64,000 nucleotides of DNA, from NCBI RefSeq assembly GCF_011045215.1, contig NZ_CP049201.1; one strand, 5' to 3'. The DNA is from Escherichia coli (GTDB taxonomy: Bacteria > Pseudomonadota > Gammaproteobacteria > Enterobacterales > Enterobacteriaceae). The notes below the pieces were generated by a model. That model did not search any database, was not told the DNA's origin, and worked only from the letters and a program-made list of their open reading frames with translations. Of this stretch, positions 1-54,990 are shown in pieces; positions within the stretch are counted from its first letter, which is position 1, and each line of letters starts with the position of its first letter. Made by a program: the position numbers and the translations under genes.

Positions 1-936
1 CTCCCGTACCCCGAAGCCCCGTGTGATAAAGCGCACTTCCGCCCCCGCTTTCAGCAATACCGGTCGGCAGGGCAGCGTTATCGTCATCTGACGCCCCGCT
101 TTCTGCACCCGCTTTACCTTCGACTGTGCACAATGTTCTGCCGTGCCCTGGTCTGGCTGGGTGAAGGGATGACGCTTGTCTGTGGACTCCACATCCACTT
201 TAAGTTCACGCGTGCGACCATCAGACGGAGTAAAGTACCTGACACCAACCTTTCCCCCTTTTCCGCCTCCGGATGCCCCCTGCCGATCGCCCTCCCGGTA
301 ATCCCAGTCTGACACCATATCCGGTGTGATAGTCATCACAGGGGCATCCCTGCCTCCGGTACTCTGCGACGCACCATACTCCAGAAATAACCAGTAACCG
401 TTCGTCGGTTTACTGGTGGCACCGTACATCCCTGCAAGCCGGGAAAGCAGGGACGCATCCGACTCAGATGACTGCATCACCCACGGAATACGAATTTCCT
501 CCAGTACCGGAGATACCCGCGCCACCAGATTATTTTCAGTGGCGATCGTTTTTACCAGGTCACCCAGCGTGACATCGCTGAAGGCGCGGGTTTTCAGTGC
601 AGTCACATCTGCACCATGCCTGGACGCATTCATGGGGGCTGCGGTGGCATAAATGGTGATCCGGCGGGGAGGGCCACCGCTTGCCACCTGACAGACAGTA
701 AAGCTACCCTTATTCACCAGACGTCCGTTAAACCCCAGCCCCAGCGTTAATACTGCGCCTTTCGGTGGCAATGCCAGCGTTTCACTGAACAGCGTTATCA
801 TTAACTCATCAGCCCGCTTTGTGGCAGCACCATTATCGGTATAACGCAGTTCAGCCAGTCCGCGTTTTATTGCTTTCGTGATATCCTCGCCTTCCACCGT
901 CAGACTGAAATCCGGCTGATATTCATTCAGTCCCAT
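1..936 (-). CDS. Tail protein D-like (P2 gpD family), partial; C-terminus beyond window
   Basis: Minus frame open from ATG at 936 to window edge (MGLNEYQPDFSLTVEGEDIT...); follows U and X as in P2/phiCTX tail clusters. Confidence 0.55.
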   Translation of the reverse strand, partial: MGLNEYQPDFSLTVEGEDITKAIKRGLAELRYTDNGAATKRADELMITLFSETLALPPKGAVLTLGLGFNGRLVNKGSFTVCQVASGGPPRRITIYATAAPMNASRHGADVTALKTRAFSDVTLGDLVKTIATENNLVARVSPVLEEIRIPWVMQSSESDASLLSRLAGMYGATSKPTNGYWLFLEYGASQSTGGRDAPVMTITPDMVSDWDYREGDRQGASGGGKGGKVGVRYFTPSDGRTRELKVDVESTDKRHPFTQPDQGTAEHCAQSKVKRVQKAGRQMTITLPCRPVLLKAGAEVRFITRGFGVRE

Positions 937-1145
937 AACTGAAACGTCTCCTTCTCTTCCGGCTCATATGTCCAGTCCGGTAACACAATTTCCACCCCGG
1001 ACGGATACACCGGACCAAGGTCAGCCAGCCCGGGATTGGCTTCCAGTACCGCCGCCAGTGACTGGTTGAGCCCGGCGCTGCCGTAGTGTCTCTGACAGAT
1101 ATCATCCAGCATATCGCCGTCAGTGGTCCGCCAGTTTTTCGCCAT
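927..1145 (-). CDS. Tail protein X (LysM-like, P2 gpX family)
   Basis: 72 aa; ...AVLEANPGLADLGPVYPSGVEIVLPD... resembles P2 gpX; sits between U and D. Confidence 0.65.
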   Translation of the reverse strand: MAKNWRTTDGDMLDDICQRHYGSAGLNQSLAAVLEANPGLADLGPVYPSGVEIVLPDWTYEPEEKETFQLWD

Positions 1146-1614
1146 AGTATTTCAGCTCCAGTGTGAACGTTTTGTTTTTCGGCGCACCGCCGGGAAGAAA
1201 GGACGTGGTGTTATCTGAATAGGCGGTTACAACAAAATACCCCATCACATCCCCCGTCCCGGAAACCAGCAGATGCGGCGCAGGATTTTTATCCACCATC
1301 TGAACCAGCGTATCAAGGGCATCCATCCCCACACCGTCACGAAATCCCGCATGAACCATCCCTTCAAGGCTTATCGTTCTGGCCCCCTTACCGGTATACT
1401 GCAGCAGATCATTTTTTCCGATTAACTGCTGCTCATCCCATCGCCATTCCATGGTGCGCTTCATGGCGTTATACGCCGCTGAATCAATACTGAACTCAAA
1501 CTCACCAAACGACAGCATGACCCGCGAGGCCACATCGGTTAATGAACCAATCCTGTCCCATGCCCTGCGCTCAATCATGTTTGCGCCAAAGCCAACAAAA
1601 TCCACCATCATCAC
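1120..1614 (-). CDS. Tail protein U (P2 gpU family)
   Basis: 164 aa starting MMM..., gpU-like; immediately downstream of tape measure gene. Confidence 0.65.
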   Translation of the reverse strand: MMMVDFVGFGANMIERRAWDRIGSLTDVASRVMLSFGEFEFSIDSAAYNAMKRTMEWRWDEQQLIGKNDLLQYTGKGARTISLEGMVHAGFRDGVGMDALDTLVQMVDKNPAPHLLVSGTGDVMGYFVVTAYSDNTTSFLPGGAPKNKTFTLELKYYGEKLADH

Positions 1615-3266
1615 CCCCAGAATGCATAACTGTCGGTCATGCTGGCCCGCTGGCCAAAATCAATATCACCCAGATTTTTCGTCACCCTGTCTGCCAGCTG
1701 TCCGGCATCCTCGCCGGGCTTCTGGGTGAGGTTAAATTCAGCCCGTATCTGATACGTGGGTTTTACTTCCACCTGGCTGATACTGCCCGGAACGTAGTGA
1801 AGCGCAGAAAGAGGATCCGTTTTTTCCTGCCCCTGTTTTGTAGCGGGTGGGGTGTCATACTTCGCGAGGACATCAAGCGCTTTCTTTTCCCATCCGTCAA
1901 AGTCCGGATCGTCTTCTGGCCCCAGAAAAGGCTCGAGGGACGCCTCAAATTTTTTATCGTCATCACTCAGGAAACCGCGTGTGTCTGTATACGCCTTCAC
2001 AACCTGCTTCGTCAGATCGGGATTTTTTTTAAGCTGATCATCAAACCATTTATCCTGCCCGTTCCTCTTCGCCACTGCCCTTGCCAGCTCTGGCGAGCCT
2101 GTTTTTGCCAGATATTCCAGCACCTCACGCCGGTCACTCCGTGGATCTTCAGCCAGCCCCCACTCGATGGCCTTTTCAGTGAGCCCGGCAATGACTTTTC
2201 CAAAATTCCACGCCCAGGCCGTCACCTTGATCAACATCGGCAGCGCGTCCTCTCTGATAAATGTATTGATTTTTTCCAGCCCGCCGTTTTTAAACCAGTC
2301 CGCCAGGTCGTCCGTGACCTGCTGAATATTCGGTGCCAGCTCTTTCCCCAGCTGTCCACAGATTTCATCAATGGACGAACCCAGAACACCGGTGAGGTTT
2401 GAGACGGCGATATGTCCCCGGACGGCACCATCCGCCCCTTCCCTGGTCACCAGGTTATAGCGCTTCTGCTCCTCAATAAGCTCCCGGTAAGTTTTTCCTG
2501 ACAGACGCATCCAGGTCAGGATCTTATTACCCTCACCACCAAACAATGCATCCGCCATCCCGGCAGCCTTTTGTTCATCCTTCACCTGCAGCAATCGGTC
2601 AAAAAGAAATTCAACCTGCTCCTGGTTGTTTTTTCCCGCCATCGCCCCGGCTTTCAGCCCCAGCGCCCCGAAGACCTGCTGTATGGCACCTTTATCCGAT
2701 GCGCCATTATCATCATCAAAAACCTTGTTGCGGTACTCCTCAAACAGATCCCCGAAGTTTTCCCCGTTCAGCCCCATCTGCTTACCCAGCGAATCCCACG
2801 CTGCATACGTCTCATAATCCACACCGTAACTCCGGGCTATCCCTGCCCGCTCTGCAGTTTCACTGTTCCGGCTAAATGCTGCACCGGCAGCGCCTGCCAG
2901 TGTCAGTCCTGCCCCGACCGAAAGCCCTAACCCCGCTTTCAGAGCGGTCTTTCCACGCCCTTTCCAGCGTTCCAGACGTTCCGCACGTGCCAGCTTACGG
3001 TTAAATTTATCCTGCTCTCCGGTGGCATCATGAATTTTTTTGCCCAGCTTTTCATACTGCTTTCGCAGTTCAGTAATATCCTGCCCTGCCAGTACGCCAG
3101 CCTGAATTTTTCGTTTCAGTACATCCTGCTGGCGAGTCAGGCGAGCCACTTCCTGCGTTGCCCCTGATAATCCGTGCTTCAGTCCATCAACCGATTTTTT
3201 CCACGACGGATCTATCGTGCCGCCGATCCTGATATTCGCTTTCAGGTTATCGCCCACCGTTGCCAT
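1611..3266 (-). CDS. Tail tape measure protein
   Basis: 551 aa, coiled-coil N-terminus and Gly/Ala-rich hydrophobic segment; follows E/E' chaperone gene. Confidence 0.8.
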   Translation of the reverse strand: MATVGDNLKANIRIGGTIDPSWKKSVDGLKHGLSGATQEVARLTRQQDVLKRKIQAGVLAGQDITELRKQYEKLGKKIHDATGEQDKFNRKLARAERLERWKGRGKTALKAGLGLSVGAGLTLAGAAGAAFSRNSETAERAGIARSYGVDYETYAAWDSLGKQMGLNGENFGDLFEEYRNKVFDDDNGASDKGAIQQVFGALGLKAGAMAGKNNQEQVEFLFDRLLQVKDEQKAAGMADALFGGEGNKILTWMRLSGKTYRELIEEQKRYNLVTREGADGAVRGHIAVSNLTGVLGSSIDEICGQLGKELAPNIQQVTDDLADWFKNGGLEKINTFIREDALPMLIKVTAWAWNFGKVIAGLTEKAIEWGLAEDPRSDRREVLEYLAKTGSPELARAVAKRNGQDKWFDDQLKKNPDLTKQVVKAYTDTRGFLSDDDKKFEASLEPFLGPEDDPDFDGWEKKALDVLAKYDTPPATKQGQEKTDPLSALHYVPGSISQVEVKPTYQIRAEFNLTQKPGEDAGQLADRVTKNLGDIDFGQRASMTDSYAFWG

Positions 3267-3427
3267 AACGTCGCCGCCTCTCTTCCGATTCCTCCAGCAT
3301 CATTGACACAAAATCTGCATACGGCAGCGCCATCACATCTCCGGGAGACCACCCGAACCAGGCACCGGCGCGCCGTATCGCTGTCAGGATGCTGTCTTCT
3401 TCCGCCTGACCGGCGGCAGCAAAAAAA
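3247..3427 (-). other. Predicted -1 programmed frameshift extension (E+E')
   Basis: Coding-strand T TTT TTG at 3427-3421; -1 frame stays open 59 codons to a stop at 3249-3247, overlapping the tape measure start. Confidence 0.55.
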
Positions 3428-3686
3428 CATTAAACTGCCGCTCCAGGGCCAGGTAATCACACGCTTCCATATTCATCATGTCCGCCGCATCCATTCCGCA
3501 CAGGCCGGCTATCATATCCAGATCGGCTTCTGCTTCCGGCTTGGTACTCCGGCGATGTAACAGACGATCGCGGACGGTGGGTGCACGCATGGTGACATGC
3601 GAGATTGTCTGACCTGACGCAGTGACATACGGCACGGATAACACAATCTCCACGCTGCTGCAGGGAATACTGTTTATCTCTGGCAT
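3384..3686 (-). CDS. Tail assembly chaperone E (P2 gpE-like)
   Basis: 100 aa ORF between tube and tape measure genes; slippery heptamer near its 3' end. Confidence 0.6.
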   Translation of the reverse strand: MPEINSIPCSSVEIVLSVPYVTASGQTISHVTMRAPTVRDRLLHRRSTKPEAEADLDMIAGLCGMDAADMMNMEACDYLALERQFNVFLLPPVRRKKTAS

Positions 3687-3746
3687 ATTGATTTCCTCTT
3701 AAAAAGAAAAGGCGGCCTGAACCGCCTGAATGACCACTTCTCCGGA

Positions 3747-4265
3747 TCACACCCGGATAATTTTTTTCAGATCCGACAGCACATTCACACCGTTAATGCG
3801 CCGTACAAACTGCTCCGGAATAATGCAGATGGTCTCCAGTCCATCGACAGCCTGGCGGTAATAACTCAGTGACATTTCCACCGACACCGCTGCTTCTGCC
3901 TGCGAGGTGGACGGACGCGCATCCGGCGTGATACTGGTGATCATCCCCTGAAGGGTTTCCACCAGACCGCTTGTTGCACCGCCCACCTGATACGCCTGAC
4001 GGACAACAATTTCTGGCGAATAAATCCCTGCCTGCAATCCCAGCAGAGTCAGTATGGCCACGTCGTATCCGTAAATTTTAAACGAGCAGGTCAGCGCCTC
4101 CATACCGTCATCCACTGACACCGGCGCATCCATCGCACCGGTTTTGATGTCCACCTTCGTGATATTGATGGCCGGAGGCGTGTACTCATGTGCCCCCTGA
4201 AGGCGAATACCACCCGGCAGAAAGAGCGCCCATGCCCGTAGCAGTTTTTTTTCGCACGACATCAT
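3747..4265 (-). CDS. Tail tube protein (P2 FII-like)
   Basis: 172 aa, same length and position as P2 FII downstream of sheath. Confidence 0.75.
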   Translation of the reverse strand: MMSCEKKLLRAWALFLPGGIRLQGAHEYTPPAINITKVDIKTGAMDAPVSVDDGMEALTCSFKIYGYDVAILTLLGLQAGIYSPEIVVRQAYQVGGATSGLVETLQGMITSITPDARPSTSQAEAAVSVEMSLSYYRQAVDGLETICIIPEQFVRRINGVNVLSDLKKIIRV

Positions 4266-41921: not shown

Positions 41922-42212
41922 TCACTGCATCGCCTTCTGTAAAATAACCGCATGCCCCAGCTTCTCCGCCAGCGCCAGTTCTGCCTTAGCACCCGCCGAC
42001 CGCTGCCAGCCATTCAGCATGTAAATCGCATCCACGCAACGTATCATCGCCATGCAGATATCCATGTACTGCGACTGAGTCAGTCCGTCCGGAAGTACTG
42101 CCGGGTTTAAGACGGTATGCCCTTCCCGTTTCAGTTCCTCTTCCGCTTTGTGAAACGCCTCACGGTTGAAGTTTTCATGGCCAGTCATCGGCCCTGCGAC
42201 ATAAACCTTCAT
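41922..42212 (-). CDS. DUF4406-like protein (nucleoside 2-deoxyribosyltransferase-like fold)
   Basis: 96 aa; MKVYVAGPMTG...N...A pattern. Confidence 0.55.
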   Translation of the reverse strand: MKVYVAGPMTGHENFNREAFHKAEEELKREGHTVLNPAVLPDGLTQSQYMDICMAMIRCVDAIYMLNGWQRSAGAKAELALAEKLGHAVILQKAMQ

Positions 42213-52949: not shown

Positions 52950-53198
52950 ATGGCAAGACTTATTCTGCTCACTGAGTGGGCAAAAGAGGAATTCAGCGAT
53001 CCGGTCCCTACTCCGGGCACGTTAAGTAAATACGCTAAAGCCGGAATGATATTTCCTCTCCCCAAAAAAGTTGGAAGACACTGGCGAGTGGATCCACGAG
53101 CTCGCTTTGTCGGAATGGTAAACAAGCCGGAGGTGATCGCCACAGATCACCCTGCTTTGAAGAGGATACTGGAAGATGGCGCGCCCGCGAAAATATAA
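52950..53198 (+). CDS. Excisionase-like protein
   Basis: 82 aa directly upstream of and overlapping int. Confidence 0.6.
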   Translation: MARLILLTEWAKEEFSDPVPTPGTLSKYAKAGMIFPLPKKVGRHWRVDPRARFVGMVNKPEVIATDHPALKRILEDGAPAKI

Positions 53199-54306
53199 AA
53201 CCGAAGTTCCGGGACTATCTCCGTATTTTGACAAAAGAAATAACAAAGTTTACTGGCGTTACAGGCATCCCATAACAGGCAAAAATCACGGTCTCGGCAG
53301 TATTGACCAGAAACTGGCAGAAACTATTGCAGCAGAAGCGAACAGCCGTCTTGCCAGGCAGCAAATGGAACAAATGCTCAGTCTGCAGGAGAAAATTATT
53401 AATGATACCGGCGGTTCATCAACCGTTTCCATTTTTCTGAATAATTACAGAAAAATTCAACAGGAAAGATATGAAAACGGAGAGATCAAACTCAACACGC
53501 TGAAACAAAAAGCGGCCCCTCTCAGGGTATTTGATGAACGTTTTGGCACCAGACCGTTAGATGCCATAACTGTAAAAGATGTGGTATCGGTGCTGGAAGA
53601 GTACAAGGCCAGAGGACATAACAGAATGGGGCAAATTTTCAGGAAGGTACTGATCGATGTTTTCCGGGAAGCTCAGCAAACAGGCGATGTTCCGCCAGGC
53701 TTTAACCCTGCAGAATCGGCAAAAAAACCGCAGGTGCGGATATCAAGACAGCGACTGACTTTTGATGAGTGGATGATGATTTATAACGCAGCGGAAAAGG
53801 ATGGTTACTTTTTACAGCGCGGCATGCTGCTGGCACTGATGACAGGCCAGCGCCTTTCAGATATTTGCAAAATGCAATTTTCGGATATCCGGGATGGTTA
53901 TCTTCATGTCGAACAGCAAAAAACAGGAACCCGGATTGCCATCCCTCTTGCTCTGCGTTGCAATAAATTAAATCTCACCCTGGATGATGTGGTGTCATCC
54001 TGTCGCGATTGCGTTCTTAGTCCGTGGCTATTGCACCACCATCATGCGAAAGGGACAGCCAAGCGCGGCGGGATGGTTAAGCCAGCAACGTTAACAGTTG
54101 CATTTAAAAAAGCGCGGGATTCTGTGGATTACAACTGGCGTGCTAATGGCACCCCACCCTCTTTCCATGAGCAGAGATCTTTATCAGAGCGATTGTTCAG
54201 AGAGCAGGGAATTGATACCCAAATTTTGCTGGGTCATTCGAATCAAAAAATGACCGATATTTACAACGATGCACGCGGCAAGGAGTGGAAAAAACTGGTC
54301 ATTTGA
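53176..54306 (+). CDS. Tyrosine integrase, lambda type
   Basis: 376 aa; MARPRKYKTEVPGLSPY... N-terminal arm-binding domain; catalytic ...LLGHSNQKMTDIY...; last prophage gene before ompW. Confidence 0.9.
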   Translation: MARPRKYKTEVPGLSPYFDKRNNKVYWRYRHPITGKNHGLGSIDQKLAETIAAEANSRLARQQMEQMLSLQEKIINDTGGSSTVSIFLNNYRKIQQERYENGEIKLNTLKQKAAPLRVFDERFGTRPLDAITVKDVVSVLEEYKARGHNRMGQIFRKVLIDVFREAQQTGDVPPGFNPAESAKKPQVRISRQRLTFDEWMMIYNAAEKDGYFLQRGMLLALMTGQRLSDICKMQFSDIRDGYLHVEQQKTGTRIAIPLALRCNKLNLTLDDVVSSCRDCVLSPWLLHHHHAKGTAKRGGMVKPATLTVAFKKARDSVDYNWRANGTPPSFHEQRSLSERLFREQGIDTQILLGHSNQKMTDIYNDARGKEWKKLVI

Positions 54307-54351
54307 TGACCAGTTTTGCAGAGGAGTTTTGCAGAGATTTTGCAGAGAAAA
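54307..54351. repeat. Three TTTTGCAGAG direct repeats at prophage-chromosome junction (att region?)
   Basis: agTTTTGCAGAGgagTTTTGCAGAGatTTTGCAGAGaaaa between int stop and ompW stop. Confidence 0.45.
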
Positions 54352-54990
54352 TTAAAAGCGGTACCCGGCAGAGAACATAAACACCCACGGATCCAGTCGT
54401 ACCGCGTCTTTCACGGGTGTTCCGTTAGATTTATAGCTGGCTGTGGTATCGATATCCATGTACCACACTGACATGTTAACCAACCAGTCACGGTTAATCA
54501 GATAATCAACCCCCACCTGCCCGGCAGCTCCCCAGGAATCTTTCAGACTGAGATCGGAAAGCCCCGCCTCTTTGCCATGATCGTTAAATCCATTATCAAA
54601 GAAGGTGGTGTAGTTAATACCTGCCCCAACATAAGGACGGAATTTGCTGCTGGCATCACCAAAATACCACTGCGCCATCAGTGTTGGCGGCAGATGATGA
54701 ACGGTTGCAATATCGCCGGTCGCCCGGGTGCCGATTTTATGGCGGAACGGCGTCGCTGCCAGTAATTCCACACCAATGTTGTCGGTCGCCATATAAGTAA
54801 ACGTCAGGCCCAGTTGAGTGTTATTGGTCACGCTGAATCCACCCAGACTTCCTAACGTACCACCAGCACCTTCTGTTGGACGTACGGTTGCAGAACCTGC
54901 ACGCATAAAAAATTCGCCTGCTTCATGCGCAAAGGCACTGCCAGAGAGAAGAGTTGTTACTGCCAAAGCCGCCACTGTTAACTTTTTCAT
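54352..54990 (-). CDS. ompW: Outer membrane protein W
   Basis: 212 aa; MKKLTVAALAVTTLLSGSAFA signal peptide; ...SAGYRF C-terminus. Confidence 0.95.
   Translation of the reverse strand: MKKLTVAALAVTTLLSGSAFAHEAGEFFMRAGSATVRPTEGAGGTLGSLGGFSVTNNTQLGLTFTYMATDNIGVELLAATPFRHKIGTRATGDIATVHHLPPTLMAQWYFGDASSKFRPYVGAGINYTTFFDNGFNDHGKEAGLSDLSLKDSWGAAGQVGVDYLINRDWLVNMSVWYMDIDTTASYKSNGTPVKDAVRLDPWVFMFSAGYRF

Follow-up and report, generated by a model that had tools for sequence, protein, structure and literature searches.

What is the role of a short sequence that stands three times over in the narrow gap between a prophage integrase gene and ompW? The question arises in a 64,000-nucleotide stretch of the Escherichia coli contig NZ_CP049201.1 (the whole of it referred to below as the window), where the stop codons of int (TGA, 54304-54306) and ompW (54352-54354) are separated by a gap of 45 bp (54307-54351). 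A preliminary description of the locus had regarded the repeats in this gap as probably part of the phage attachment site, in its arm or core region. They almost certainly do belong to an arm of that site. The feature is of an ordinary and well-understood kind, and the prophage that carries it belongs to the known PPompW family.

The repeat array and its neighbourhood

The existence of three direct repeats between the two stop codons, noted in the preliminary description, is confirmed: the ten bases TTTTGCAGAG occur in three exact copies starting at 54314, 54327 and 54338, with start-to-start spacings of 13 and then 11 bp. The features of the locus are listed below in window coordinates.

52950-53198, plus strand: xis (excisionase), 82 amino acids, an open reading frame matching Pfam PF07825 Exc (E 4e-7)
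53176-54306, plus strand: int (tyrosine integrase), 376 amino acids, with an N-terminal arm-DNA-binding domain
54291-54317, no strand: hairpin AAAACTGGTCAT-TTG-ATGACCAGTTTT, spanning the int stop codon; on the ompW strand the stem is followed by U6
54314-54323, plus strand: repeat 1, TTTTGCAGAG, proposed arm-type Int site, outermost from the core
54327-54336, plus strand: repeat 2, TTTTGCAGAG, proposed arm-type Int site
54338-54347, plus strand: repeat 3, TTTTGCAGAG, proposed arm-type Int site, closest to the core
54352-54990, minus strand: ompW, an intact hybrid of 212 amino acids with a host 5′ part and a phage 3′ part; called ompW in homologous records
54352-54442, minus strand: phage-supplied substitute for the ompW 3′ end (stop codon and last ~30 codons), diverged from K-12
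54443-54470, no strand: identity block (core) of 28 bp, GTGGTATCGATATCCATGTACCACACTG, alike in phage and host

Simple arithmetic predicts ~0.1 occurrences of any one 10-mer on the two strands of 64 kb, so that three copies of TTTTGCAGAG inside 34 bp are not due to chance. No further exact copy occurs elsewhere in the window, and the number of copies with at most one mismatch (seven including the three repeats, against 5.5 expected) is at chance level. Tandem Repeats Finder describes the array as ~3 copies with a period of 11/13 and a score of 58. The repeats fill 30 of the 45 bp, which makes the earlier statement that the interval consists almost entirely of them a mild exaggeration; the remaining 15 bp comprise TGACCAG, four spacer bases and AAAA.

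The TGACCAG segment is the 3′ half of the hairpin that spans the int stop codon. The folding energy of this hairpin is -14.9 kcal/mol on the plus strand and -17.0 kcal/mol on the minus strand, where none of 200 shuffles reaches such a value (z -5.0), and in strain DG341-1 its stem carries a compensatory pair of changes, C>T plus G>A. A simple scan for terminator patterns did not call the hairpin at 54291-54317. The phage probably brings it in as a terminator that works in both directions, serving the hybrid ompW and, weakly, int.

The integrase belongs to a group for which the partition of DNA contacts has been described: such enzymes bind and cut at core sites and also bind arm-type sites that lie at a distance, in the P and P′ arms, while IHF and Xis bend the intervening DNA (PMC4880445). 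The enzyme of the window matches PF09003 (Arm-DNA-bind_1) at residues 2-71 (E 2e-21) and the catalytic domain PF00589, together with a match to PF22022 that stays below the Pfam curated cutoff (24.4 vs 27 bits). It aligns with the lambda Int structures 5J0N/1Z1G over residues 12-375 (E 1.5e-55), and its overall identity is 36% with lambda Int, 50% with phage 21 Int and 44% with the Int of vB_EcoS-640R1. Over the first 80 residues the identity with lambda Int is only ~34%, and the mode of arm recognition is therefore an assumption. Prophages are assigned to PPompW when their integrase is >90% identical to that of O145:H28 strain 112648 and ompW is split (PMC8112680); the integrase of the window is 98.4% identical to those of PPompW records in amino acids (95.9% in DNA), and a hybrid ompW is present. 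Homologues of xis are labelled excisionase in the STEC316 and PPompW records.

Conservation of the array was assessed in seven alleles found by BLAST, hence not selected on the repeat. Of the 30 repeat positions, 29 do not vary among these alleles: the last base of repeat 1 is A in two of them, and repeats 2 and 3 are the same in all seven. The spacers read GAG or GGG and A or G, which makes two of their four bases variable, and the adjoining ompW substitute is heavily variable. E. coli ST130 (NZ_CP043478.1; locus L007, about 715-770) has four copies, in the order TTTTGCAGAA GAG TTTTGCAGAG G TTTTGCAGAG G TTTTGCAGAG; its substitute ompW end also carries a 15-bp insertion. Nine IMG/VR loci detected through the exact repeat pattern were left out of the conservation count, and an integrase-based search of IMG/VR yielded 80 loci, most of which end exactly at the int stop codon, without downstream DNA. 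When 100,044 species representatives were scanned for the exact pattern, the triple repeat was found only in Escherichia albertii NBRC 107761. In that strain (locus L107, 5632-5900), int, the repeats, the substitute ompW end and the core are all as in the window, and the DNA past ...CACACTG matches neither the ompW continuation nor the known far arms.

Crossover point and duplicated ompW end

Alignment to prophage-free strains had been named beforehand as the test on which a phage origin of the repeats would stand or fall. At the position of the repeats, the K-12 yciE-ompW interval holds unrelated sequence, a terminator hairpin, and the repeats are absent; even with one mismatch allowed, the motif does not occur in 6.4 kb of the K-12 locus. 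Among the BLAST matches listed, the alignment of prophage-free genomes begins at window position 54350. To the right of the repeats, 3.4 kb (ompW, yciC, yciB, yciA, tonB) are 98.5% identical to K-12. The segment 54352-54442 is strongly diverged from K-12, with perfect identity from GTGGTATCGATATCC... onward.

Four related lysogens (STEC316, O111 RM9322, OkiPb01707 and PPompW_132418) reveal both ends of such a prophage. As had been anticipated, the prophage of these intact lysogens separates the yciE side from the rest of the locus: yciE stands at its far end, next to a K-12-type ompW 3′ fragment of ~120 bp; the phage thus brings a separate copy of the ompW end with it. The native fragment ends ...GTGGTATCGATATCCATGTACCACACTG (...CACACTG) in all four and is followed by phage DNA, and in STEC316 the identity of phage and host extends 7 bp more, through ACATGTT.

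On the evidence of these junctions, strand exchange must occur in the 28-bp identity block 54443-54470, inside ompW, and the putative core-type sites and overlap region are placed within the same block. It contains an inverted repeat, GTGGTA-N12-TACCAC, which bears no relation to the TTTTGCAGAG motif. The repeats begin 129, 116 and 105 bp before the core, and their assignment to the core region does not survive such distances. They are phage DNA, absent from the empty site, and represent arm rather than core. Prophage boundaries called at this locus are corrected in the same way, since the boundary lies inside ompW and not after it. The prophage had been described as ending within 45 bp of the ompW 3′ end, by insertion at that end; instead, phage-derived DNA continues for ~91 bp into the ompW frame, up to a crossover that lies inside the coding sequence and not in the ompW-yciE intergenic region, with replacement of the 3′ end.

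This arrangement is in line with the published att duplication, which measures 121 bp and lies inside ompW (Nakamura et al. 2021, PMC8112680). GenBank LC567822 carries an annotated 121-bp 'duplication due to insertion', identical at 96 of 121 positions, which agrees with a crossover inside ompW. An imperfect 121-bp duplication is present at both ends of the prophage in the four lysogens named above. The int-side copy of the window occupies 54350-54470, the far end being beyond the window, and neither a second core copy nor a native ompW fragment occurs in the 64 kb. A 13-bp match at 42057, GATATCCATGTAC, lies inside a phage gene and was judged to be due to chance, with ~0.5 such matches expected in the scanned region. 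The data on the far arm come from relatives, as the left end of the window is still in phage tail genes; at positions 1-4000 the prophage runs off this end, starting in genes for a contractile tail. This contractile-tail module differs from the lambda-like organization described for PPompW prophages (PMC8112680), in whose record tape-measure and host-specificity genes are annotated.

Proposed arm sites in related phages and the reading of the repeats

A search for a matching repeat at the other end of the prophage had been suggested, and in relatives it succeeds, with one copy at 1-2 mismatches; the window's own far junction lies outside the window. In three diverged far arms (62-74% mutual identity), the copy is located 120 bp beyond the core and in the same orientation. 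It reads TTTTGCAGAA in STEC316 and O111 RM9322 and TTTTGCAGGA in OkiPb01707 and PPompW_132418, which have one arm in common. The chance of finding it in shuffled arms is 0.008, 0.008 and 0.08. All these far arms also contain an exact IHF consensus, AATCAGGCAGTTA or AATCAATCAGTTA, at +88-89 (chance ~0.04 per arm). On the int side, no match to the strict IHF pattern, WATCARNNNNTTR, was detected in the stretch from the repeats to the core. Inspection by eye for a second far-arm site like lambda P2, in either orientation and with at most two mismatches, gave nothing convincing.

The two arms are seen joined in four IMG/VR contigs of 29-53 kb (L015, L016, L018, L020), in which the int end of PPompW is connected through the 121-bp att to the opposite, effector-gene end in mid-contig, that is in the attP configuration. 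These contigs could represent prophages in tandem or, alternatively, the 'attB-in-PP_3' of Nakamura et al. (2021); in the second case, that site would structurally be a complete attP with arm sites. The excised attP has been demonstrated by PCR (PMC8112680). About 300 bp past the core, the PPompW far arm (locus L005, 3185-3520; also L006) contains CCGCCACTTTAACTGCATGAC; its reverse complement is the 21-bp sequence that serves Stx2a phages as a secondary attachment site when they insert into PPompW (PMC8112680).

Comparison with other phages extends this picture. The closest prophages are those of PPompW (STEC O145:H28 and relatives; LC567818-LC567841; PMC8112680), which have the same integrase, ompW target, three repeats and spacing, and differ in spacer bases and in the substitute ompW end. 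Phage 21 resembles them in layout. Beginning 11 bp after its int stop codon, it reads CCAG TTTTGGGGAA GGG TTTTGGGGAA AG TTTTGGGGAA, with spacings of 13 and 12 and the same preceding CCAG. After these come, in this order, a terminator, the icd 3′ end as carried by the phage, the core and two far-arm elements: an IHF consensus (+88) and a further exact copy of TTTTGGGGAA (+120), for which the chance is 1e-4. Its far arm aligns with those of the ompW phages with only single-base gaps, the IHF and arm-motif blocks falling in the same columns. The repeats are annotated in GenBank OL657228.1 as 'attP consists of 3 subsites P1P2P3; consensus YYTTCCCCAAAA'. Unlike the window, phage 21 targets icd, carries a substitute of ~163 bp, has its terminator past the repeats, before the gene end, instead of across the int stop codon, and uses a motif that differs from TTTTGCAGAG at positions 6, 7 and 10. 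A location of the phage 21 att on the other side of int (M61865, with an icd pseudogene upstream of xis) was discarded, as the complete genome has the icd substitute and attP downstream of int. In vB_EcoS-640R1, which lies beside potC, the array is TTTTGGGGAA ACG TTTTGGAGAG A TTTTGGAGAA, with spacings of 13 and 11 as in the window. Across these phages the motif family is TTTTG[C/G][A/G]G[A][G/A], and it varies along with the integrase.

In the lambda sequence, three segments (aggtcactat, cagtcaaaat and aaaatcattat) stand in tandem about one helical turn apart and abut or overlap the int stop codon; they correspond to the arm sites P′1-P′3 (Ross & Landy 1982). The P′ arm of lambda is thus alike in having three direct tandem sites of ~10 bp directly by the int stop codon, next to a homologous PF09003 integrase, and in having additional arm site(s) and an IHF consensus on the other arm. 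Differences exist as well. The lambda motif is roughly CAGTCACTAT, as against TTTTGCAGAG here, and its sites lie ~50-80 bp from the core rather than 105-129 bp, the greater distance here arising because the substitute ompW 3′ end intervenes. The far arm of lambda has two sites, whereas one was detected in the ompW phages, with two mismatches in some alleles; no strict IHF consensus was found on the int side of the ompW phage, whose target is a coding sequence where that of lambda is intergenic.

The literature that could be searched does not spell out a motif for this integrase. The term 'arm-type' is absent from PMC8112680, a search for phage 21 or icd arm sites gave nothing useful, and a full-text search for TTTTGCAGAG returned, among the matches listed, unrelated titles that presumably contain primer sequences.

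The repeats are very likely arm-type sites for the N-terminal domain of Int in the P′ arm of a lambdoid prophage of the PPompW family, the counterpart of lambda P′1-P′2-P′3. It is quite unlikely that they bind Xis or another accessory DNA-bending protein instead. An Exc-family xis gene does lie just upstream of int, a spacing of 11-13 bp between three direct repeats would favour cooperative binding as a filament, and lambda Xis also binds three head-to-tail sites ~10 bp apart; the names X1, X1.5 and X2 for the lambda sites are given in PMC4880445. However, the sites of lambda Xis are confined to one arm, the int-distal one, while in phage 21, as in the ompW phages, the motif considered here is found on both attP arms at ~120 bp from the core; its location by the int stop codon is that of lambda P′1-P′3, and the phage 21 record names its repeats P sites. 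A role mainly as RNA, in the 3′ UTR or terminator region of the hybrid ompW or int mRNA, is very improbable. Lying between the ompW stop codon and a strong hairpin with U6, the repeats are very probably transcribed as the ompW 3′ UTR, and the T-run of repeat 1 forms part of an extended stem; yet the 45-nt interval by itself folds no better than random on either strand (z -0.35, +0.07), and such a role leaves the far-arm copy unexplained. In phage 21, moreover, the repeats stand beyond the annotated icd-side terminator, on its int side, so that the conserved feature is a DNA motif with a position in attP and not a place in a transcript.

Two further explanations deny the repeats an arm function altogether. 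That they are a functionless, neutral product of replication slippage is extremely improbable: short tandem arrays do arise in this way, and the copy number varies, reaching four in ST130, but three copies recur at an equivalent position, almost identically spaced, after integrases that are only 44-50% identical, in different surrounding DNA. The motif is kept while spacers vary, and a matching copy occurs at a fixed distance on the other arm. Their position at the apparent boundary between a phage gene and ompW would suggest that the repeats themselves form the end or core of the prophage and the point of crossover with the host. This is hardly conceivable, given an empty site without such sequence, and it is refuted by the junctions, at which the native ompW fragment reaches ...CACACTG, 120 bp beyond the repeats.

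If the repeats are arm-type sites, the N-terminal domain of Int would bind the three of them and the single related site on the other arm, while its C-terminal domains would bind the core, ~100-130 bp off, in the ompW coding sequence. The choice of this domain as the binding moiety and the roles given to individual sites are inferences. Bending of the IHF type would bring arm and core together, and strands would be exchanged within 54443-54470. Integration would then replace the last ~30 ompW codons with the phage copy, the native fragment staying next to yciE. Once integrated, the repeats form part of the int-side junction (attL by the lambda convention) and would be reused, with Xis, for excision.

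The arm-site motif and attP layout obtained in this way apply to an integrase whose gene end is joined to ompW in 1,714 of 5,426 complete E. coli genomes (about one third), including major Shiga-toxin-producing lineages. One attP blueprint, with motifs differing at 2-3 positions, is common to the ompW phages, the potC phage and phage 21, which form a tidy natural set for the study of arm-site specificity. The understanding of lambda-type recombination is unchanged.

The substituted ompW end and the prophage surroundings

The phage-supplied end has consequences for the protein. On the minus strand, the substitute (54355-54442) recodes one short stretch of OmpW only, with invariant flanking residues on both sides. 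This stretch is TTANYKLGGAQQHDSVRL in K-12 and TTASYKSNGTPVKDAVRL in the window, and in other lysogens it is ..SYKFNGTPVKDS.., ..KYKSGVTTVKDS.., ..SYKLNGAPVKDS.. or ..KYKSDGRKLAKGSYSDN.., the last with five additional amino acids. There are at least six versions of the OmpW end, including the native one, and one of them is five residues longer. The recoded stretch is presumably the last surface loop of OmpW. The exchange could be a lysogenic conversion of a surface receptor, in which case lysogeny at a very common site would alter that receptor. It is an unlikely extension of this idea that the int-proximal arm works as a small conversion cassette beyond recombination, in which the Int arm sites double as the 3′ UTR, between the phage-supplied ompW 3′ end and a phage-supplied terminator. 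If so, occupancy by Int or convergent transcription of int could influence ompW expression.

Rearrangements may have affected the ompW prophages of some relatives. In the closest genome, E. coli C5 (NZ_CP010122.1; locus L003, 27956-29221; 99.4% identical), two truncated tail-fibre genes mark the point where the prophage meets another one in opposite orientation, and for this reason the far att junction is not found beside the ompW prophage there. The arrangement suggests recombination or inversion between prophages, events that have been reported at the ompW locus (PMC8112680). In STEC316 (locus L011, 1 to about 30000), which has the closest allele at the att site, Mu-like genes (a Mor activator and a Mu-like gpT head subunit) are located between the int end and the far junction, so that the two att junctions are ~84 kb apart.
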